A DNA stretch of 24,000 nucleotides from Candidatus Micrarchaeota archaeon. Its GTDB lineage: Archaea > Micrarchaeota > Micrarchaeia > Micrarchaeales > CABMGC01. A program made the position numbers and the translations under genes. This document shows positions 4,022 to 19,381 of this stretch, piece after piece (positions within the stretch are counted from its first letter, which is position 1; the number at the start of each line of letters is the position of its first letter). The notes beneath the pieces were generated by a model that was not told where the DNA came from, ran no database searches, and worked only from the letters and a program-made list of their open reading frames with translations. Location of the stretch: assembly GCA_030040265.1 (NCBI GenBank), contig JASHUB010000025.1, forward strand, positions 4,271 through 28,270, in the 5' to 3' direction.

Positions 4022-5431
4022 TCAGGACTCGAGATTCCCCTTCAGCCCGTCAACAAGCAATCGCATTATCTGGCTGCGGTCGTGCGCGTCGGCCACCTTG
4101 AGGGTGCCGGCGCTCATGTGCCCACCACCCGACTCGATGCCTGCGTATGCCTTCTTCATCTCCGACATCACGCCCAGCAGGTCAGCCTTGTCGCTGATGG
4201 ACTTGTCGACCCTGACAGAGACAAGCTTCCCGAAGTGCAGCACGACGATGCACGGCTCTGTATTGAGCTCGCGCATCTTGTCAAGCAGTTTCGATGCGAA
4301 TCTTCCGGGCAGGGGATAGCGCGCGGATTCGTCGCCCCTGACGTTCTCGAAATCTGCGACGAATATCTTCGCTCCGCCTGCCTGGTACATCTTGACGGCG
4401 CCCAACGCAGAGTCGATTGCCTCGCTCAGCTTGTTCTTCGCATAGCCGAGCAGCTCGTCTGCGCGCGCCTTGTCTTTCAGCACAGTGTCAATCGTCTCCG
4501 GCGTGAGGTTCGAGCTTGCTGAACCGGTGACCACGCGAGTGTCGCTGGTCATCAGGTCGAGCAGCATGGAGAGCCTGCGGCTCTCCTCAGTAGGCGCAGA
4601 GTATTCGCTGTAGTCGCCTATGAACGACGCCTCTTCCAGCTCGCGCGTGTCGACCTCTGAGAAGGTCTTCGCGAACGCGCACGAAAGGAAGCCGGCCGTG
4701 TAGTTTGAGTCCCCGCCGAACCTCCATGGATTCGTGTAGTGCGCAAAGTCAAGCCCCCTGAAACCCTCTATTATGGGGTGGTGGTCCAGCCATATGACGT
4801 CGAATTTGTCGCCGAGCGTGGCTACGCCGTCGTTGCTCTCCAGCGCGGTGCCGAAATCCGTGCAGAGGAGCAGCGGCTTCTCTATGGTGCCGTAGTTGTT
4901 CGCCATAAGCACGTCCGAAGATGCGTCATCGATGCCGTAGAACACGGACCGCTGCATCTTCCACACGGTGTTTCCGAACCGGAAGCCGATGCGCGATTCG
5001 AGATCTGCGAGCGACTTGTACAGCCCGAATGCGCCGGTGGAGCCGTCGGCGTCGTTGTGGAACCTGATTATCACCGGCGCGCCCAGCATCAGCTTCTTCA
5101 GCAGGAGCGCTGCGGATGCCGACAGCCGGTCCCACATCCTTGCCGTGACCTCGTCCAGCGCCTTCACTCCTATCGCATAAGGCTTGTTCGAGACGCAGCG
5201 CCTCGCAGCCTCGGCCGCGGCTTCCCTCGCCACCGATACCGCTGCATCATCGAAAGAGATTGCGGCGCTCTTCACGGTGCCGCCTTCGCCATCGAAGTCT
5301 ATGGTCTCGCCCTCCTTGAGGACTATCTCGCTTCTGTAATATCCGATCTTCGCGGTGGCGGTGTCCACCACGCAGTAGAGCTGCTCGCTCTGGGCATTGC
5401 TGTACTTTATCGAAGCCACCAGTCCCTTCAT
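4022..5431 (-). CDS. DHH-family phosphoesterase (RecJ/GAN-like or NrnA-like) with an extra ~110-aa N-terminal domain
   Basis: DHH motifs occur in the canonical order: RFHNDADGS (DxD), LLCTDFG, IWLDHHP (DHH), and SGGGHMSAG (the GGGH of DHHA1). ATG at 5431 lies 11 nt after the stop of the upstream gene on the same strand. Confidence 0.75.
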   Translation of the reverse strand: MKGLVASIKYSNAQSEQLYCVVDTATAKIGYYRSEIVLKEGETIDFDGEGGTVKSAAISFDDAAVSVAREAAAEAARRCVSNKPYAIGVKALDEVTARMWDRLSASAALLLKKLMLGAPVIIRFHNDADGSTGAFGLYKSLADLESRIGFRFGNTVWKMQRSVFYGIDDASSDVLMANNYGTIEKPLLLCTDFGTALESNDGVATLGDKFDVIWLDHHPIIEGFRGLDFAHYTNPWRFGGDSNYTAGFLSCAFAKTFSEVDTRELEEASFIGDYSEYSAPTEESRRLSMLLDLMTSDTRVVTGSASSNLTPETIDTVLKDKARADELLGYAKNKLSEAIDSALGAVKMYQAGGAKIFVADFENVRGDESARYPLPGRFASKLLDKMRELNTEPCIVVLHFGKLVSVRVDKSISDKADLLGVMSEMKKAYAGIESGGGHMSAGTLKVADAHDRSQIMRLLVDGLKGNLES

Positions 5432-5442
5432 GTTGTTCGTAC

Positions 5443-6516
5443 CTAACTTCCCGTCGTCACGTTGAAGTTCATGCCCTCAACGCAAGCACTGTTTTCGATG
5501 CTGTTGGTTATGTAACTGCAGTAAGTAGCGTTCTTGTACCTGTATGCGAGAGAATAGTAGCACTGATAAGATTCACTCGTGTTGAACTCCGCGCAGATCG
5601 CGATGTTCTTCGTGTTGACGGCCTCCCCGAGCAGCGTGCCCGTCCTGCAGATGCTCTGGTACTGGGAGCTCACCTGCGAGCACTCATCGAGCAGCTGCGT
5701 GTAATTGACAGGGCCTGTAGGTGTCGCCTTCGATATAAGGCCAGCGCAGTAGTCGCCAAGGTTGCCGTTCGAGACGAGGCTGCAGTCGCTTGTGTTCTGC
5801 GCTGCGTATGCGACCAGCGTGTAGCAAACGTCTCTCGGCGAGAACGCGCTCTGGTTTGCCCGCAATGCAGCGAACTCAGCGACCGACTTGATGCTCAGGG
5901 AAGTATCGTAGCTGTATCCCGACGAGCTGAGGTTCGCAAGCACCATCTCGCTGAGGGTGGCATTGGTCCTGTTCGTCACCACGTCGCACAATGCGGCATC
6001 CTCCCCGAGCAGCGCCTGGTTCGTCTGCACGGCCGCGTCGCACGCCTGAGAGCCGGTTGTCGAAGCGATGTCGGCGCATAGCGTCTGGTTGTACTGTTTA
6101 ACTGCGAGGAGCGAGTAGCACGGGGCGGAGCTGCCTGAAGGCATGTAGCTGCAGTCAGACGCGTCGGCCGTAGCGTTCGCTACGAACAGGACGCATGTGG
6201 ATTGGTTCTGTGCGCCGCTTATCTTGCTGCATGTGCCGGCGTTCAGGGTCTTCTCGGCAATCGCGCCGTAGCATCCGTTCGCGCTGCCCGATGGCAGATA
6301 ACCGCAGATAGAGGCGTTGTCCGTGGCCATTGCCAATTGGTTCAGGCACTCATACTTGCTTTGGGTGATAGCCGCGCCCAGGCACTGCTGCAGCGTGCTG
6401 CCCCTCCTAAGCCCGAACGACGCAAGGGCTGCCACGATGACGATCGCGACCACCACCGCATAGATCAGGATCCTGTCGCGTCTCTCCCTCTCCGGATTTG
6501 CCATTGCTGCCTTCAT
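5443..6516 (-). CDS. Membrane-anchored, Cys-rich, sequon-rich extracellular repeat protein
   Basis: N-terminal basic stretch followed by one TM helix (ILIYAVVVAIVIVAALASFGL). The ectodomain has 20 Cys and 13 N-x-S/T sequons, with a recurring unit of the type D/N-x-S-x-C-x-Y-(L/M)-P-S-G-S-x-x-x-C-Y-x-x-(I/L)-A. Starts 9 nt after the KaiC-like gene stop. Confidence 0.7.
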   Translation of the reverse strand: MKAAMANPERERRDRILIYAVVVAIVIVAALASFGLRRGSTLQQCLGAAITQSKYECLNQLAMATDNASICGYLPSGSANGCYGAIAEKTLNAGTCSKISGAQNQSTCVLFVANATADASDCSYMPSGSSAPCYSLLAVKQYNQTLCADIASTTGSQACDAAVQTNQALLGEDAALCDVVTNRTNATLSEMVLANLSSSGYSYDTSLSIKSVAEFAALRANQSAFSPRDVCYTLVAYAAQNTSDCSLVSNGNLGDYCAGLISKATPTGPVNYTQLLDECSQVSSQYQSICRTGTLLGEAVNTKNIAICAEFNTSESYQCYYSLAYRYKNATYCSYITNSIENSACVEGMNFNVTTGS

Positions 6517-6525
6517 GCCATCAAG

Positions 6526-7260
6526 TCAACCGAAGGCCGAGGTTATGTCCTCGGCGGCTATAACCCTGAAGCCGGACGGCGATATGTCATACGGCGCAGT
6601 CACGAAACTGTGCTTCGACCCGCGCATCTTTATTATCTCCAATGCCGGCATCCTTTTCTGCTCCTCTTCGGTCTGGTACATTATTATTATACCGTCAAAC
6701 ATAAAATACTCTGGTTTGAACCTGAGCCGGTTCCGGTCCGGGTCGTCGAGCTGCGCTATGAGGAGCGAGGTGACGCCCATCCTCTTCAGGTCCTTTATCA
6801 TCGAGAGGCTAGCCTTCCTGAACGCCACTTTGTTGCTTATGAGGACATCGAGCAGCGACACCGTGTCGAGCACTATCCTGGTGGCGCCAGATGCGGTTAT
6901 GTCCCCTTCCATCTCGGATATGAACCTGCCGAAGTTGTATTCCGGGTTCTGCGCGTCGTCGAAGAGGCCCATCGCCGCTTCTGAGTTCACGGTTATCTTC
7001 TTCTGCCTGATCAGCGAGTCCATGTCCTTCAATTCCGGGAACGCTGCCTTCACGTTGTTCATGACGGAGCGCGTGTCCTCCTCAAGCGCAAACAATATCC
7101 CCGACTCGCCCATGAGCGCATTCCTGTACAGGTACTCGAACCCGAGCAGCGTCTTGCCTGCTCCAGGCCCGCCTGCAAGCAGCACCTGGTCCCTGTCCGG
7201 TATCCCGCCAAACAGCATGGCATCCAGGCCAGGTATGCCGGTTTTCACTTTCCCCTCCAT
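6526..7260 (-). CDS. KaiC-like / RecA-superfamily ATPase (single domain)
   Basis: The N-terminus GIPGLDAMLFGGIPDRDQVLLAGGPGAGKT (Walker A) and RIVLDTVS (Walker B) are typical of single-domain archaeal KaiC/RadA-like ATPases (244 aa). ATG at 7260. Confidence 0.8.
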   Translation of the reverse strand: MEGKVKTGIPGLDAMLFGGIPDRDQVLLAGGPGAGKTLLGFEYLYRNALMGESGILFALEEDTRSVMNNVKAAFPELKDMDSLIRQKKITVNSEAAMGLFDDAQNPEYNFGRFISEMEGDITASGATRIVLDTVSLLDVLISNKVAFRKASLSMIKDLKRMGVTSLLIAQLDDPDRNRLRFKPEYFMFDGIIIMYQTEEEQKRMPALEIIKMRGSKHSFVTAPYDISPSGFRVIAAEDITSAFG

Positions 7261-7300
7261 GAGTGCATCTCTCTAGAACATATCAGATTGGATACTACCT

Positions 7301-7308
7301 TTTAAATA
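7301..7308. promoter_or_regulatory. TATA box candidate in a divergent intergenic region (TTTAAATA)
   Basis: Lies between the divergent starts at 7260 (-) and 7347 (+). Same 12-mer as at 383-394. Confidence 0.45.
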
Positions 7309-7346
7309 ACTTCAGATGCCTATATACGACGTATTCTGGGGTCAAA

Positions 7347-8138
7347 GTGCATCTAAGATATGTCCTTCTAGGGGTTCTGCTGATAGTGTTCGCCTTCGCA
7401 TCGGTATTCGTGTCACTGAAGTCCCTGACCAACTTCGTTGGCAACGGGGGAGGCGCGACAGAGTTTGCGATGAGGCCGAACCAGACCTTCTACTACAACT
7501 TCGCGATAAACAAGACCTCCATACTCATCGCATCGTACGCGGCAACGGCCAACCTCAGCGCATACTACCTTGTCAACAGCACGGCGTTCGCACAGCTCGA
7601 ACCAGAGGCGAAGGCGAACCAGAGCCTGCTGCCAACGGCCGAGTCGTTGGAGGGCAAGGGCGTCGTCGAGATAGTGCTCGGTTCCGCAGGCGGCGCGTTC
7701 CCGGCCACTTCGAACGTGTCGACACTTTCCGGCACGCCGATATATGCAGTGCCAAACTCCACGGTGCAGCCTGGAGCGTACTATGCAATATTCACCAGCA
7801 GCGCTGCGTCCAAAAACACCACGACCATCGTGTTCAAGGCCGAAGGCGTCAGCACTGCCCCAACCACTGCGCCGAGCATAGGCTCTTCGTTCGAGCTCGG
7901 GTCCCTGGGCGGGGTGATACTGTTCCTCCTGGGCATCTTCTTCATAGTCTGGGGTTTCTTCAAGAGGCAGCCCGGAGAGCAGCCGAAAAAGATCACGTTC
8001 CTTCCCCCTAAGACCAAGGAACAGGAGGCAAAGGACAAGAGGAGCGAGGCGGCAGAGGTCGAGCGGCTCTACGCCGGGATAGGCGCGAAGCCTAGGGCAA
8101 AGCCCAAGGCTGCAAAGCGTAGAAAGACCAGAAAGTAA
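7347..8138 (+). CDS. Secreted/anchored sequon-rich surface protein with a C-terminal TM helix and basic tail
   Basis: Frame of track ORF 7263-8138. There is no in-frame ATG near the 5' end. GTG 7347 gives a signal-anchor-like N-terminus, HLRYVLLGVLLIVFAFASVFV. Eight N-x-S/T sequons, a C-terminal TM helix (LGGVILFLLGIFFIVWGFF) and a K/R-rich tail. The start codon is uncertain. Confidence 0.65.
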   Translation: MHLRYVLLGVLLIVFAFASVFVSLKSLTNFVGNGGGATEFAMRPNQTFYYNFAINKTSILIASYAATANLSAYYLVNSTAFAQLEPEAKANQSLLPTAESLEGKGVVEIVLGSAGGAFPATSNVSTLSGTPIYAVPNSTVQPGAYYAIFTSSAASKNTTTIVFKAEGVSTAPTTAPSIGSSFELGSLGGVILFLLGIFFIVWGFFKRQPGEQPKKITFLPPKTKEQEAKDKRSEAAEVERLYAGIGAKPRAKPKAAKRRKTRK

Positions 8139-8161
8139 GGCGTTTGATTAAAGAGAAAAAG

Positions 8162-8206
8162 GCAGATAAGACAAAAAGAGGGTTAAGGAGAGTGGATCTT
8201 ATCTGC
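8162..8206. repeat. Perfect 10-bp inverted repeat (GCAGATAAGA ... TCTTATCTGC) with a 25-nt loop
   Basis: Read directly: 8162-8171 is the reverse complement of 8197-8206. On the minus strand it is followed by CTTTTTCTCTTT (reverse complement of 8150-8161). Confidence 0.6.
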
Positions 8207-8229
8207 GCAATGAAAATGATTTAGTAGGT

Positions 8230-8245
8230 AAGGTTTATAAACCTT
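8230..8245. promoter_or_regulatory. 16-bp perfect palindrome AAGGTTTATAAACCTT containing a TATA-like core
   Basis: Self-complementary as read. AAGGTTTATAAA also occurs upstream of tfb (22476-22487). Confidence 0.4.
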
Positions 8246-8299
8246 AGCGCGACACTCGAAAAAGCCCTGTTATGCGTCTAAGTGGGGTTCGTCAAACTC

Positions 8300-8307
8300 T
8301 ATATAAA
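8300..8307 (+). promoter_or_regulatory. TATA box (TATATAAA) for the HTH regulator gene
   Basis: Its centre lies about 27 nt upstream of ATG 8330, which is the geometry of a leaderless archaeal mRNA. Confidence 0.6.
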
Positions 8308-8329
8308 CCTTTACTCACCAATTACCAGT

Positions 8330-9019
8330 ATGGACAGCCTACGCGAACGCATCGCTGGAGAGATAGCGCTTTCCGAGAATCCGGGAAGCACGATGAAGAA
8401 ATGGCGTGAGCTCTTCGGCATATCGCAGGTCGAACTGTCGAAGCACCTCAAGATATCAACATCAACGATCAGCGACTACGAGGGCAACAGGAGGGCCAGC
8501 CCGGGCGTCAAGATAATCAAGAGGTTCGTCGACGCGCTCTTCATAATCGATGAGAGCAAGGGCAACGAAGTTGTCAGGAACCTGGAGAAGTTCAGCCTGC
8601 CTAAGGAGAAGGACAGCTTCTACAGCATACACGACTTCAGCGCGCCCATCTCCGGAATAGACTTCGCAAGGATAATAGACGCAAAGATCGCCTCGAACCC
8701 GGGATACCTGGACTCGATGAAGCTCTTCGGCTACACGCTTCTGGACAGCCTGCGCGTCATACTCGAGATATCGCCCAGCGAGTACCCGAGGCTGTTCGGC
8801 ACCACCAACGAGCGCGCCTTCATATTCGACCAGGTCAGCACCGGAAGGTCTCCGATGGTCGTCATAAGGGTCGCCCCGATAAAGCCCAGACTGGTTGTGA
8901 TCCAGAACATCGATGCCGTTGACAAGCTCGCGATAAAGATATCCCAGATAGAGAAGATCCCGTTGCTCACCACTAGGCTCAGCACAGAGGAGATAAAGCT
9001 AAGGCTGAACAACATCTAG
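8330..9019 (+). CDS. XRE/Cro-type HTH transcriptional regulator with an uncharacterised C-terminal domain
   Basis: MKKWRELFGISQVELSKHLKISTSTISDYEGNRR is a classic HTH_3 (Cro/C1) motif, followed by a ~150-aa C-terminal domain. ATG 8330 is chosen over the track start 8282 because of the TATA spacing. Confidence 0.75.
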   Translation: MDSLRERIAGEIALSENPGSTMKKWRELFGISQVELSKHLKISTSTISDYEGNRRASPGVKIIKRFVDALFIIDESKGNEVVRNLEKFSLPKEKDSFYSIHDFSAPISGIDFARIIDAKIASNPGYLDSMKLFGYTLLDSLRVILEISPSEYPRLFGTTNERAFIFDQVSTGRSPMVVIRVAPIKPRLVVIQNIDAVDKLAIKISQIEKIPLLTTRLSTEEIKLRLNNI

Positions 9020-13437: not shown

Positions 13438-13461
13438 CTGCTATGCCAAATGCCTATACAT

Positions 13462-13585
13462 GCCAGGGTGGCAGAATCCGGTAACGCGCCGGTCTCGAGT
13501 TTGCAAAACATCGAGAGCTGATTTGTGATGCAACAGGCAAACCGGTGCCCGCAAGGGCTTTAGGGTTCAAATCCCTACCCTGGCG
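13462..13585 (+). tRNA. tRNA-Ser (anticodon CGA), class II, with a 40-nt intron after position 37
   Basis: Folded by hand. The acceptor GCCAGGG pairs with CCCTGGC, with discriminator G. Anticodon stem CCGGT/ACCGG, loop CU-CGA-G[intron]A. Long variable arm TGCCCGCAAGGGCTT. T arm TAGGG-TTCAAAT-CCCTA. The intron contains TCGAGA, complementary to the anticodon-loop TCTCGA. Caveat: the D stem has an A12:C23 mismatch. Confidence 0.85.
13500..13539 (+). other. tRNA intron (canonical 37/38 position), presumably bulge-helix-bulge type
   Basis: Removing 13500-13539 restores the anticodon stem-loop and gives an 84-nt mature tRNA. The internal stem TTGCA...TGCAA and pairing with the anticodon loop are visible. 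The exact BHB geometry was not verified. Confidence 0.7.
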
Positions 13586-13588
13586 AAC
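13574..13588 (+). repeat. Left copy of 15-nt direct repeat CCTACCCTGGCGAAC (att-like; last 12 nt of tRNA-Ser + 3 nt)
   Basis: Exact match to 14153-14167. Confidence 0.9.
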
Positions 13589-16131: not shown

Positions 16132-17031
16132 TTGCACTACGTCGTTGCTGTACCGGTCGACAAGTCTCTCATCGAGTTCATCGGCAAGAAGGGCTCGGTC
16201 AACGGACTCACGTTCTACAACAGGAAGATGGACGACAACGTCATAGTGGCGCTCGCGCCGACTAGCATCGAGGAGAAGTTCTACGCGGCGTCAGAGGCGC
16301 TGCTCATCGCAGACCAGATAGTCCTGAGCACCGCGAGCGTCGACAAGTCGTTCGGCGAGATGCTGGTGGCATGCTCGCTGCTGGGCAAGCGTCTCCTGAT
16401 AACCAAGGACAACGACATCGGCAACCTCCTGACAGGGACATCGATGAAGAACTTCGAGCTGATCGACAAGGAGCAGGTGGTTGACAAGATCCTCGCATTC
16501 AAGCCGGAGCACCCATCCGGGGACGTGAGGGTCGACATAGACCACGCGTTCCCTGTCAAGGGCATAGGCACCGTCGCGCTCGGCGTAGTGAAGGGCGGCA
16601 CGGTCAAGGTCCACGACAAGCTCTTCCACACCTCCGGAAAGGAGGTGGAGGTGCGCTCGATGCAGAGCCAGGACGTGGACATCACCACAGCCGAGTACGG
16701 CACCAGGGTCGGGATCGCGCTTAAGAACATCGAACCGGACGAGATTGACAAAGGCGACCTTCTCACCTCGAAGAAGGCGCAGAAGGCGAAGAAGATAACC
16801 GCAGAGCTGATGACCAGCGGCTTCGCAAGCGAGAACATCGAGCCCGAAAGGCTGTACACCTTCGCGTCGAACTTCTCCTACTCGAACGCGCGTGTGGAAA
16901 AGAAGGGCGTTGAAGCCGAGATAACGTTCGAGAAGCCTGTGGCGGTCCTGCCTGGCGACAGATTCCTGCTCGCGAGGGCTGCAGTGCCAAGGATATTCGC
17001 ATCAGGAGTGGTGAAGACAGTCACTTCATGA
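16132..17031 (+). CDS. EF-Tu/SelB-like protein with a degenerate G domain (pseudo-GTPase) and intact EF-Tu domain 2
   Basis: VDIDHAFPVKGIGTVALGVVKGGTVKVHDKL...EVRSMQ.......A..G.RVGIALK.....EIDKGDLL is a clear GTP_EFTU_D2 beta-barrel. The N-terminal ~130 aa align to a G domain but read VAVPVDKS where GHVDHGKT is expected and APTS where DxPGH is expected. TTG start lies 8 nt after the upstream stop. Confidence 0.7.
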   Translation: MHYVVAVPVDKSLIEFIGKKGSVNGLTFYNRKMDDNVIVALAPTSIEEKFYAASEALLIADQIVLSTASVDKSFGEMLVACSLLGKRLLITKDNDIGNLLTGTSMKNFELIDKEQVVDKILAFKPEHPSGDVRVDIDHAFPVKGIGTVALGVVKGGTVKVHDKLFHTSGKEVEVRSMQSQDVDITTAEYGTRVGIALKNIEPDEIDKGDLLTSKKAQKAKKITAELMTSGFASENIEPERLYTFASNFSYSNARVEKKGVEAEITFEKPVAVLPGDRFLLARAAVPRIFASGVVKTVTS

Positions 17032-17595
17032 AGCGTCCCAGATGCTTTGGAACTGCCTCCTGAGCTCTTTCACGTCTTTCGGGTCGGTCACGACGTCTAT
17101 GTGCTCCACGTTCTTGTGCATCCCCCTGTAAGTGAAGTTGGCGGACCCGCTGGCAGCCTCTGTCTCTGCGATGTACATCTTGGCGTGCACGAACTCGCGC
17201 GGCACCTTGAGCGAGATGCCCCTGCTTTTCATCCTCACGAAGAACAGGCTGCAGGCAATGAGCGCCACCGAAGCTGCGATGAGTGCGAGCCCAGCAGCGT
17301 GCAACAGGTAAAGGAAAGCATCCATGATTATCACGAACGCGGAGAGCTTGAACGGCCAGAGCCTCACGCCGCCGCCCCGCAGCATCCTTGCTGCGTCACT
17401 GTCGATCGATGATGCAATGATGCGGATCTGTTTGCCAGCGCAGTTCCTGAGCAGGAAAGCCGCATAGTACCTATCGATATAGGGCGACGAAATGCAGATG
17501 TTCCTGCCGTTCTTTATTATCTTCTCAACGTATCTGTAACTCTCGTGGCCGGAGTAGGAATACCTTTTTGATTTTAGCAGTCCTAGCATATTCAC
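17026..17595 (-). CDS. PLD-superfamily (HKD motif) nuclease/phosphodiesterase-like protein with an inserted hydrophobic hairpin
   Basis: The HKD-type motif VHAKMYIAETEAASGSANFT (H-x-K-x4-E-x5-G-S-x-N) and the N-terminal ICISSPYI are typical of Nuc/PLDc_2 proteins. A ~45-aa hydrophobic stretch (LWPFKLSAFVIIMDAFLYLLHAAGLALIAASVALIACSLFFV) sits between the core strands. Its 3' end overlaps the convergent gene by 6 nt. Confidence 0.65.
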   Translation of the reverse strand: MNMLGLLKSKRYSYSGHESYRYVEKIIKNGRNICISSPYIDRYYAAFLLRNCAGKQIRIIASSIDSDAARMLRGGGVRLWPFKLSAFVIIMDAFLYLLHAAGLALIAASVALIACSLFFVRMKSRGISLKVPREFVHAKMYIAETEAASGSANFTYRGMHKNVEHIDVVTDPKDVKELRRQFQSIWDAS

Positions 17596-17616: not shown

Positions 17617-18570
17617 ATGGTTCTCATGGCTGACAGACTTGACATGGAGCAGGGATTCTACAGGGACGAGGTGCACGACATCGCAGTCTACACCGCGCTC
17701 GCCGAGAACGAGTCGAGGCCGGAGCTCAGGAGGCTGCTGCAGAAGCTGGCGGACACGGAGAAGAAGCACGCCAAGATATGGAAGGACATAATCTCCGATG
17801 CAGGTGAGACGCCACACGAGCCGGCATTCGTAGGATTCGCCGTCGCATACTACGTATTCATCAGGAAGGTCCTTGGCACCGCATTCGCAATCAAGCTGCT
17901 GGAACGCGGCGAGGAGCGGGCCATAGAAGAGTACTCCGCAGCGCTCGGCAGCAGGAGGATAAGCGGCAAGGGGAAGGCCGCCATAAGGAATGTGATACTA
18001 AACGATGAGAAGTTCCACGAGAAGGAACTGTCCGGAAAGATAGGGGAGTACACCGGAGACCTGAACTACATAAAGTCCATAATCTTCGGGCTCAACGACG
18101 GGCTAGTAGAACTGCTTGCGGTCGTCACCGGACTTGCTGTCGTAGCAACATCGAGCCTGGTAGTGGCTGTCGCAGGAATAGTTGTCGGGATAGCCGGAAC
18201 GCTGTCCATGGCCGCCGGGGAGTACATCTCATCCAAGTCGAGAGGCCTCGTGAGGGAGGCCATGAGGGAAGACGTCGTGCACAAGACGTCGCCAGCCAAA
18301 GAGGCGATGTATATAGGTCTGTTCTACTTCATAGGCGCGATAATCGCGGTCCTCCCGTTCATCCTCGGGCTGGTCAGATACGCCGGCATAATCACGTCAA
18401 TAGTGCTTGTGGTCATAGTCCTGACCGTCGTCTCGACCATAGTCGCGATAATAAGCGACACGAGCGCGAAGCGCAGGGTCGCGGAGATGCTGGTGATATC
18501 GCTAGGGGCAGCGTTCGTAACAATAATATTGGGAGCGATCATCAGGTACTACTTCGGAATAAGCATATAG
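17617..18570 (+). CDS. Membrane-bound ferritin-like / VIT1 (CCC1) family iron-manganese transporter (MbfA-type)
   Basis: The N-terminal erythrin-like four-helix region carries ExxH motifs (TEKKHAK, DEKFHEKE). Next comes the VIT1 signature FGLNDGLVELLAVVTG and 5 TM helices. The start could also be ATG 17626 or 17644. Confidence 0.85.
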   Translation: MVLMADRLDMEQGFYRDEVHDIAVYTALAENESRPELRRLLQKLADTEKKHAKIWKDIISDAGETPHEPAFVGFAVAYYVFIRKVLGTAFAIKLLERGEERAIEEYSAALGSRRISGKGKAAIRNVILNDEKFHEKELSGKIGEYTGDLNYIKSIIFGLNDGLVELLAVVTGLAVVATSSLVVAVAGIVVGIAGTLSMAAGEYISSKSRGLVREAMREDVVHKTSPAKEAMYIGLFYFIGAIIAVLPFILGLVRYAGIITSIVLVVIVLTVVSTIVAIISDTSAKRRVAEMLVISLGAAFVTIILGAIIRYYFGISI

Positions 18571-18596
18571 CTCCTAGTGAGTTCAGGTGATTGTGG

Positions 18597-19319
18597 ATGT
18601 TCAAGGATATCAAAGCGCAGATGGCTCACGTTAGGAGTTTTCGGAGAAAAACCCTGGTGCCATCGCAAGATGAACTCTTATGGGAACTGTTTGGAGTTTG
18701 CTTAGGCGACGGTTGCTTATCTCGGTGCTTTAACAGAACGACAGGCTACACGATGAATTTTACTATCTTCACAGGAAATGGGAAGGATGATTTTGAATAT
18801 TATACTACCTACCTAGCTCCTAGCCTAAGATCCAAATTTAACATCAAAGTTACTCCGTATCTCCGAAAAGATTCCAATTCGATAGCCATTCGCATAAATA
18901 ATCAAAGTGTATTTTATTCTTTCAAGAAGCTCGGCATGCCCATAGGTAAGAAAAAGGAGAAGATTGAGATCCCTCCAATAATGTTCAAAAAACCTAAGAG
19001 AGTCAAGGCAGCAGTGTTAAGAGGCCTTCTTGATACGGATGGGTGTATTTTCGCAAGAAGAGATGAGGCTTATAAATATCTACACATAAAGATAACAAGT
19101 GCAAATGAATCTTTCTTATATCAAATAAAGAAATTAATGGGCGACTTCAATTTGCCGGCATATGTCCATTGGCAAGGCAGGCACGGAGGCGACGTGATAG
19201 TAAGAGGAAATAGTAATATAAAGCGTTGGATGGCATTAATAGGAACATCACACCCACTGATAAAACAGAGATATATCGGATGGCTGGATAAAGGAGTTCT
19301 CTTACCTAAGGGCTCGTAG
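18597..19319 (+). CDS. Free-standing double-motif LAGLIDADG homing endonuclease
   Basis: Two LAGLIDADG motifs, ELFGVCLGDGC and LRGLLDTDGC, both retaining the terminal acidic residue, in a ~240-aa protein. SD-like GGTGA lies 7 nt upstream of ATG 18597. Markedly AT-rich versus the flanks. The TAG stop (19317-19319) lies inside tRNA-Ala. Confidence 0.85.
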   Translation: MFKDIKAQMAHVRSFRRKTLVPSQDELLWELFGVCLGDGCLSRCFNRTTGYTMNFTIFTGNGKDDFEYYTTYLAPSLRSKFNIKVTPYLRKDSNSIAIRINNQSVFYSFKKLGMPIGKKKEKIEIPPIMFKKPKRVKAAVLRGLLDTDGCIFARRDEAYKYLHIKITSANESFLYQIKKLMGDFNLPAYVHWQGRHGGDVIVRGNSNIKRWMALIGTSHPLIKQRYIGWLDKGVLLPKGS

Positions 19320-19381
19320 CGCAGTGGTAGCGCACATCGTTCGCAACGATGGGGTCGCGGGTTCGAATCCCGCCGAGTCCA
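19310..19381 (+). tRNA. tRNA-Ala (anticodon CGC)
   Basis: Hand-folded 72-nt cloverleaf. Acceptor GGGCTCG/CGAGTCC with the G3:U70 Ala identity pair. D arm GCGC-AGTGGTA-GCGC. Anticodon arm CATCG-TTCGCAA-CGATG. T arm GCGGG-TTCGAAT-CCCGC. Discriminator A. Confidence 0.9.

Follow-up and report, generated by a model that had tools for sequence, protein, structure and literature searches.

A LAGLIDADG endonuclease gene that ends inside tRNA-Ala(CGC) in a Micrarchaeota genome, and the probably mobile family to which it belongs

Why should the gene of a homing endonuclease end within the first nucleotides of a tRNA gene, and what does this say about how such a gene persists in an archaeal genome? The question is raised by a stretch of 24,000 nucleotides from Candidatus Micrarchaeota archaeon (GenBank assembly GCA_030040265.1, contig JASHUB010000025.1, forward strand, positions 4,271 to 28,270; hereafter the window, in whose own numbering its positions are given), in which a free-standing LAGLIDADG open reading frame (ORF) takes its stop codon from the gene for tRNA-Ala(CGC). 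The reading favoured here, which I regard as likely, is that this ORF, intact in structure, belongs to a mobile, selfish LAGLIDADG family which in Micrarchaeota is specialised on tRNA-Ala(CGC), and that its cassette enters the tRNA gene and carries a replacement for the 5' segment that it displaces.

The gene and its overlap with the tRNA

The gene, the tRNA and the elements within them are located as follows.

18597..19319, + strand: endonuclease ORF, free-standing, double-motif LAGLIDADG (ORF list, PF14528, homologues, AlphaFold2, Foldseek)
18687..18713, + strand: LAGLIDADG motif 1, LFGVCLGDG, residues 31-39, with D38 as predicted catalytic residue (translation)
19017..19043, + strand: LAGLIDADG motif 2, LRGLLDTDG, residues 141-149, with D148 as predicted catalytic residue (translation)
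19260..19277, + strand: candidate archaeal B recognition element and TATA box (BRE/TATA) for the tRNA, inside the ORF, ATAAAACAGAGATATATC (proposed from its position compared with other alleles)
19310..19319, + strand: overlap of ORF and tRNA, 10 nt (read from the sequence)
19310..19381, + strand: tRNA-Ala(CGC), 72 nt (ARAGORN; Rfam RF00005, 71.9 bits)

The ORF runs from an ATG at 18597 to a TAG at 19317-19319 and encodes 240 amino acids (aa), with an alternative in-frame TTG start at 18591. The start at 18575 that had been claimed in the original prediction falls in the 26-nt spacer that separates this ATG from the stop codon of the upstream gene MbfA (18568-18570), while the Shine-Dalgarno-like GGTGA that had been noted ahead of the start is indeed present at 18586-18590, 6 nt before the ATG. 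Both motifs of the translated protein have kept their terminal acidic residue, D38 and D148, respectively. In an alignment of 23 sequences (A1), with a mean column identity of 43%, four of the motif residues (D38, G39, D146 and G149) do not vary at all, and D148 is conserved to at least 90%. Among the Pfam families, LAGLIDADG_3 (PF14528) matches the window protein with an E-value of 4.5e-10 (40.1 bits, cut-off 22.5), and PF00961 and PF03161 stay under their cut-offs. An AlphaFold2 model made with 23 homologues (predicted local distance difference test score, pLDDT, 92.4; predicted template modelling score, pTM, 0.86) has the pseudo-dimeric alpha-beta-beta-alpha-beta-beta-alpha fold, and its top Foldseek matches in the PDB are the endonuclease of the TliVMA intein (7qsu, the best match), I-Tsp061I and I-DmoI (E ~1e-10, probability 1.00, target TM up to 0.77). 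Its motifs and its modelled fold place the window protein among the double-motif LAGLIDADG endonucleases, with DNA cleavage as its predicted activity, and the earlier description of a free-standing, monomeric, I-DmoI-like gene is borne out.

The gene was also expected to be neither part of an intron nor of an intein, and this holds as well. No Rfam intron family reaches its gathering threshold around the ORF and the downstream tRNA is complete and uninterrupted, which rules out a gene borne by a group I, bulge-helix-bulge or other intron. An intein endonuclease is ruled out since there is neither a Hint domain nor a host protein: Pfam finds only the endonuclease core in the 240-aa ORF, and MbfA upstream has its own stop codon. 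Nor is the arrangement an artefact of assembly, as a separate Logan assembly (L087) reproduces both junctions with 100% identity over 2323 nt.

As had been predicted, the last 10 nt of the ORF are nucleotides 1-10 of tRNA-Ala(CGC). They supply the last base of a lysine codon (aaG), a glycine codon, a serine codon and the TAG stop, which is U8-A9-G10 of the tRNA. The tRNA itself has the G3:U70 pair, and its CCA end is not encoded. Within the ORF, a TATA-like element, GATATATC, is located at -40 to -33 from the first nucleotide of the tRNA (+1), with the purine-rich AAAACAG just before it, and coincides with the conserved codons for K-x-R-Y (K-x-R-Y-N in the family). A TATA-like run is observed at -39 to -26 in five alleles without the endonuclease gene, and at about -43 to -33, again within the ORF, in other alleles that carry it. 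An internal promoter that gives the tRNA a leader of ~5-12 nt is plausible, and from the position of this box it is most likely that the window tRNA is transcribed from it with such a short leader, which weakens the claim that no room was left for a tRNA promoter. Transcripts that read through from the endonuclease gene into the tRNA probably occur as well; clipping by RNase P would take the borrowed stop codon off them and would limit the expression of the endonuclease. As most family members have this arrangement, it appears to be tolerated and might even restrain expression.

A family linked to tRNA genes and its empty sites

A search of a protein collection returned 38 homologues, the closest of which are 59-61% identical and the named ones of which are from Micrarchaeota. 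Their aligned C-termini show a conserved ...G-x-L-L-P-K, followed by short variable tails (GS, GLVAQ, RALSSA, KGLVV) that the DNA confirms to be translated tRNA 5' ends. In all 13 further Micrarchaeota loci examined (L001, L004, L007, L009-L013, L015, L163 and L196-L198), tRNA-Ala(CGC) is directly 3' of the gene, and in most of them the stop codon is found 10, 11, 15, 21 or 23 nt into the tRNA. More generally, in 38 of the 80 genome loci with relatives a tRNA gene on the same strand starts between -40 and +300 nt from where the ORF ends, against a background of 1.4% per locus in the rest of the same loci (binomial p 6e-48).

More distant relatives, in DPANN archaea and in bacteria of the candidate phyla radiation (CPR), are placed in the same way next to other tRNA genes, each subfamily going with a single kind of tRNA. 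In Woese- and Nanoarchaeota this is Ala(GGC), a dozen CPR bacteria have Ser (CGA, GCT or TGA), and Arg(TCG), Gln, His and Leu are found in others. Some genomes, such as Sv246 (L036, L077) and SI039_bin19 (L063, L085), carry two paralogues on two different tRNAs. The overlap between ORF and tRNA had been called an unusual coupling; as every Micrarchaeota relative examined is directly 5' of the tRNA, most of them with the stop codon inside it, and other subfamilies behave likewise, it is a hallmark of the family and not a local accident. Chance does not account for the flush junction and the borrowed stop codon, because both recur in relatives of 35-60% identity and in other subfamilies. In some relatives (the tRNA-His loci L058, L070 and L085, and the proteins P0018 and P0026), the open frame spans the entire downstream tRNA, and gene callers therefore report C-terminal tails of translated tRNA.

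The window protein is a short form, without the N-terminal helix-turn-helix (HTH)-like domain of ~95 aa that is found in most relatives. Its closest relatives are short as well, and short forms make up about one third of the family, the window's nearest relatives P0002, P0004-P0007 and P0011 among them. In the long-form P0008 (residues 1-100, encoded at L004 6001-6300), the extra domain is helical and modelled with a pLDDT of ~92, its helices spanning residues 13-26, 31-38, 42-50 and 57-66 ahead of a conserved NWG..GG motif. The other long forms are alike, and no Pfam match was found for this domain. Another homologue, P0003 (L197 3658-4650), has LLDMGG as motif 2 in place of LLDTDG and is probably catalytically dead, as the acidic residues of that motif are lost, even though the reading frame is unbroken and is preceded by a clear remnant of the tRNA.

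That such inactive copies exist, that the N-terminal domain is missing, and that the left junction of the window gene abuts MbfA without the module of TATA-like run and tRNA remnant described below, could all be read as signs of a decaying relic, once mobile and now inactive in its short form, which is kept since its deletion would damage the promoter and the 5' end of the tRNA. I consider this very unlikely, as the window ORF is uninterrupted, has both motifs and both acidic residues intact and is predicted to fold with confidence, and as the frequency of short forms, closest relatives included, makes them look maintained instead of truncated once.

The favoured reading, that of an intact and mobile element, draws on the upstream side of the relatives. 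In 10 Micrarchaeota loci the gene of the CCA-adding enzyme, cca, is located divergently and immediately upstream of the endonuclease gene, and the divergent pair of cca and tRNA-Ala(CGC) is kept across Micrarchaeota (L001, L004, L007, L009-L013, L153, L179, L196 and L198). L197 has archease and RtcB in place of cca, and the locus is consistently found amid genes of tRNA maturation. In L153, L179 and L101 the endonuclease gene is absent, and cca is followed by a gap of 45-51 nt and an intact tRNA-Ala(CGC). L099 is empty too, with a gap of ~60 nt (tblastn), and in L119 the endonuclease gene is also absent, but ~1.7 kb separate cca and tRNA. By synteny, L153 is a relative of the window organism: it shares five collinear genes with window positions 4022-9019 at 28-72% amino-acid identity, and the two tRNAs are 95% identical. 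Since both empty and filled sites exist, with an empty one in this very relative, the site between cca and the tRNA is polymorphic across the clade. The cca gene of L196 (3462-4719) is split into three ORFs and is either a pseudogene or the product of frameshift errors in a long-read assembly.

When metagenomes were scanned with the tRNA's 3' half as query, 108 matches were obtained. Most of these are methanogen-like tRNA-Ala(CGC) genes without an endonuclease gene and therefore say little on Micrarchaeota; the useful loci that the scan yielded are L153, L179, L099, L101, L119, L163 and L122. The last of these (VFSW01016875.1) has a tRNA-Ala(CGC) that is 100% identical to that of the window, with different genes downstream of it, on a contig that stops exactly at +1 of the tRNA; this break at the junction could reflect a mixture of variants with and without the endonuclease gene in that sample. 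Occupied and empty alleles differ in the D-loop, which mostly has 7 nt (AGTGGTA or AGTAGTA) in the former and 9 nt (AGNCCGGTA) in four of the five latter (Fisher p 0.03, with kinship ignored), a weak hint that the difference in length may be a polymorphism of target immunity.

In several filled loci a decayed copy of the tRNA 5' end is observed between cca and the start of the endonuclease gene. It reads GGGCTCGTGGCTCAGTAGTAGGAG in L001, GGGCTCGCAGCGTTAAGGTA in L011, AGGCTAGTAGCATAGTAGTA in L012 and GGTTCCTTAGCCCATAAGTAGA in L013, and L197 holds a further clear case, GGGCACATAGCCCAGTAGATGGGTA. With a position weight matrix (PWM) of 13 nt, tested against random windows of the same loci, the combined p is 7.5e-6, and the best matches are located 48-62 nt ahead of the endonuclease start codon. 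These PWM tests replaced local alignments of the 5' end of each locus's tRNA with the upstream region, which had low power. The remnants start 43-57 nt from the start of cca, in agreement with the gap of 45-51 nt at empty sites, and extend to about position 25-26 of the tRNA. A TATA-like run follows, and ~25-30 nt past it comes the start codon of the endonuclease gene, which is the geometry expected of a leaderless mRNA. Similar fragments are located ahead of the endonuclease ORF in three further subfamilies, those on Ala(GGC), Ser and Arg tRNAs (combined p 2e-7). At two CPR tRNA-Ser loci (L049 5569 and L072 5590), the tRNA-Ser 5'-like fragment before the gene reads GGAGATATGG, and with this reading it would supply a Shine-Dalgarno-like GGAG and an ATG to the open frame.

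The element also does not follow its hosts. Over eight genomes, the pairwise distances of endonuclease and cca are uncorrelated (r 0.08), and L001 and L007, which belong to different cca clades, are 0.39 apart in the endonuclease and 0.62 in cca; in the cca tree the empty genomes are interspersed among the filled ones. The same holds for composition, since the GC content at third codon positions (GC3) of the endonuclease gene is 0.26-0.42 in ten genomes and hardly correlated (r 0.20) with that of the adjacent host gene (0.44-0.74). In the window itself the contrast is the largest among the loci measured: the ORF, with a GC of 0.40 and a GC3 of 0.42, is the stretch of 723 nt with the lowest GC of the whole window, and its seven neighbour genes have a GC of 0.52-0.60 and a GC3 of 0.72-0.83. 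The gene had been described as AT-rich and foreign, and foreign in composition it is, while the 23-35% GC quoted for it understates the mean and fits local windows of 30 nt. The original prediction had taken this as a sign of recent horizontal acquisition. Patchy occupancy, incongruent trees and GC3 uphold the horizontal part, but not the recent one, as the low GC is common to all ten genomes measured and AT-richness in the window does therefore not date the acquisition. An element that keeps its own composition in every host argues instead for continuing horizontal circulation. By comparison of sequences it is present at a fixed site in some genomes, absent from the same site in others, and appears to have spread horizontally, and in this it behaves as a selfish, horizontally moving element and not as a domesticated gene.

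Domestication had been offered earlier as a possibility, and would mean that the LAGLIDADG protein serves its host in a role that involves tRNA-Ala(CGC), is held near its target by selection and is immobile. It could, for instance, be a WhiA-like transcription factor for the promoter region of tRNA or cca, or a maturase-like helper in the processing of pre-tRNA. The strictly conserved linkage of gene and tRNA would be in line with such a role, as would the frequent tRNA-related neighbours (cca in 10 loci, RtcB and archease in L197), ORFs that are intact and well conserved, and the HTH-like domain of the long forms, a combination reminiscent of WhiA, structures of which (8dy9_I and 3hyj) are among the Foldseek matches. 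A host function is difficult to reconcile, however, with the four or more Micrarchaeota genomes that have the same cca|tRNA site without the gene, the syntenic relative of the window among them, with an endonuclease tree that is decoupled from that of cca, or with a GC3 that is foreign in every host. Both catalytic acidic residues are kept, subfamilies are located on different tRNAs and some genomes have two paralogues on two of them, and decayed tRNA fragments mark events of insertion. I therefore reject domestication as the leading explanation, on the grounds of patchy occupancy, incongruent tree and foreign GC3, and think it improbable in any form. A regulator of the WhiA type in particular is rejected, as the match to TIGR00647 reaches 14 bits where the cut-off is 44, the catalytic aspartates are kept and occurrence is patchy.

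A proposed route of entry and the window's own flanks

How could a mobile element of this kind come to end in a tRNA? In the mechanism that I propose, the enzyme would cut an endonuclease-free tRNA-Ala(CGC) gene, and repair from an occupied allele would copy in a cassette of ~1 kb, composed of a TATA-like start region, the ORF, a tRNA promoter within its last ~15 codons and nucleotides 1 to ~26 of the tRNA. Entry would take place between D arm and anticodon arm, near position 26 of the tRNA, by which an intact tRNA would be rebuilt downstream and the old 5' fragment would be left stranded upstream, to decay. Such a cassette would explain why the ORF always abuts the tRNA: having no stop of its own and joined directly to the rebuilt tRNA, it would end at the first in-frame stop that the tRNA 5' segment provides. 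Provided that the enzyme recognises a site extending over both the D arm and the anticodon arm, the model would also explain why each subfamily tracks one anticodon. Membership of the family, fold, linkage to tRNA genes, empty and filled alleles, the remnants in relatives and the decoupling of phylogeny and composition are the observations on which it is founded.

A wider proposition, on which I am evenly divided, is that a large and so far undescribed guild of free-standing, intron-free LAGLIDADG elements homes into the tRNA genes of DPANN archaea and CPR bacteria, each element with a replacement for the 5' quarter of the tRNA and for its promoter. The tRNA would be rebuilt by duplication and freed from the common transcript by RNase P, and the stranded fragments would be a steady source of pieces of tRNA genes.

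Several points weigh against the proposed route. I infer the activity of the enzyme and the position of its cut from the anatomy of the loci, and the use of the promoter and the means by which an occupied allele avoids being cut are deduced in the same manner. The last of these is a difficulty of its own, as the rebuilt tRNA should recreate the target, which leaves the resistance of occupied alleles unexplained. In a number of loci, among them L007, L010 and many of those in CPR bacteria, a remnant is either missing or cannot be detected. Where present, the remnants have short D-loops as well, and may therefore travel with the cassette instead of being the recipient's own. The phylogeny of the hosts is approximated by a single adjacent gene, cca, and the low GC could partly result from a protein rich in Lys, Asn and Ile. 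The window locus, finally, lacks part of what is observed in its relatives: cca is absent from the 24 kb, and the spacer in front of the gene does not hold a significant remnant.

18568..18596, + strand: spacer from the MbfA stop codon to the endonuclease start, with a possible decayed tRNA 5' remnant, tAGCTCCTAG..CAGGTGAT, statistically unsupported (PWM, local alignment)

The PWM gives 4.1 bits for this spacer, with a chance of ~0.10, and the local alignment a p of 0.155; as neither is significant, no remnant is claimed for the window. An empty allele of the locus between MbfA and the downstream gene of a PMT_2 glycosyltransferase was looked for and not found, and no relative shares these flanks. 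Look-ups of the exact MbfA and endonuclease proteins returned only one identical contig of 2.3 kb, and homologues of PMT_2 are at most 56% identical, in loci (L199-L202) that share only this gene and are without tRNA-Ala. The right side of the window cassette is canonical; the left side is either rearranged or eroded, because it abuts MbfA in a context that is seen in no relative.

These flanks bear on a reading close to the original prediction, in which a recent, one-off insertion between MbfA and tRNA-Ala was flush with the tRNA by chance and brought no promoter, so that the tRNA would be made by read-through and the mRNA severed by RNase P. A context unlike that of any relative would fit such an event, and so would the GC3 contrast, the largest of the loci measured, and the 26 nt from MbfA stop to start codon, with which co-transcription with MbfA is plausible. 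Yet the flush junction and borrowed stop recur in relatives of 35-60% identity and in other subfamilies, a TATA-like element is found at the expected distance inside the ORF, and the family-wide low GC has no value for dating. I hold this explanation for unlikely, and retain for the window the reading of a mobile cassette with a canonical right and an altered left side.

Two further features of the window deserve mention. On the - strand, just upstream of MbfA, 17026-17595 encodes a small protein of the PLD family (PF13091, E 5e-13). It weakly resembles the PLD domain of the NgoFVII restriction endonuclease and has a hydrophobic central segment. On the + strand, 13461-13586 is a second tRNA gene (Rfam 38.9 bits) with an intron of ~40 nt, which ARAGORN misses unless introns are allowed and then labels Ala(cgc); its long variable arm and CTCGA loop suggest tRNA-Ser(CGA). 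Intron-bearing tRNA genes of this kind are also present in L196 and L197.

Significance and comparison with known systems

Homing endonuclease genes are thought to survive in essential genes by residing in self-splicing introns or in inteins, or else in intergenic DNA of phages. The present family suggests that a stable-RNA gene can be entered by yet another, third route, in which the element inserts into the gene and brings along a duplicate of what it displaces, together with the promoter. If this is true, tRNA genes of DPANN archaea and CPR bacteria join the list of homing sites, and the family would offer many new nucleases with long targets that can be guessed from the adjacent tRNA. It would also explain recurrent short tRNA-like fragments and oddities of annotation such as ORFs that read into tRNAs; in the window, the overlap of ORF and tRNA is to be annotated as genuine and expected, and not as an error. 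Moreover, it would provide a concrete mechanism for fragments of tRNA genes in lineages known for split tRNAs, and the stranded 5' fragments could bear on the origin of split or fragmented tRNA genes.

No description of LAGLIDADG genes that flank tRNAs in archaea or CPR bacteria was found in the literature searched, and a tRNA-targeting LAGLIDADG family is apparently undescribed. In Nawrocki et al. 2018 (PMC6125680), the group I introns of archaea that carry LAGLIDADG genes are all reported from rRNA genes. The archaeal intron-encoded enzymes I-DmoI and I-Tsp061I resemble the window protein in fold, in having two motifs on one chain with terminal acidic residues, and in having an archaeal host and a stable-RNA gene as home. 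However, they are encoded in rRNA introns that splice out, whereas the window gene is free-standing, 5' of a tRNA and without intron RNA, and the sequence identity is only ~17%. By sequence and profile, the closest known proteins are the LAGLIDADG_3 domains (PF14528) of inteins (TliVMA, 7qsu; PI-PfuI, 1dq3), and NCBIfam matches, far below their cut-offs, are found only on the endonuclease regions of the RtcB, IF-2, helicase and PolII inteins. Unlike these intein domains, the window protein stands alone, with neither a Hint (splicing) domain nor a host protein around it. WhiA, structures of which are among the fold matches of the window protein, combines an HTH with a double LAGLIDADG core, as the long-form relatives do with their HTH-like domain; in WhiA, however, the HTH is C-terminal, the catalytic residues are lost and the gene is universal in its clade, whereas the present family has its HTH-like domain at the N-terminus (the window protein lacks it), retains the acidic residues and occurs patchily.

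In way of life, the family resembles three other systems. The genes of the endonucleases SegB of phage T4 and F-Tfl of phage T5 are free-standing within clusters of tRNA genes, and their spread is ascribed to cleavage of tRNA-region DNA in genomes that lack them. Their enzymes have GIY-YIG and HNH folds, their hosts are phage genomes, and they are not known to have a borrowed stop codon or a duplicated tRNA segment. Elements of the integrase type land in tRNA genes and carry a duplicate tRNA segment that restores the gene; they rely on att sites and on a tyrosine or serine recombinase, in most cases enter at the 3' end of the tRNA, and are many kb in length, whereas here there is no recombinase, but a single endonuclease gene of ~1 kb at the 5' end of the tRNA. 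The mitochondrial element in atp6 of Allomyces, lastly, enters an essential gene at its end and supplies a substitute for the segment that it displaces, which is left behind and decays. Its logic is the same as that proposed here, but it concerns the 3' end of a protein gene in an organelle and an enzyme of the GIY-YIG type, whereas in the present family it would be the 5' quarter of a tRNA, together with its promoter, that is replaced, in archaea and in bacteria.

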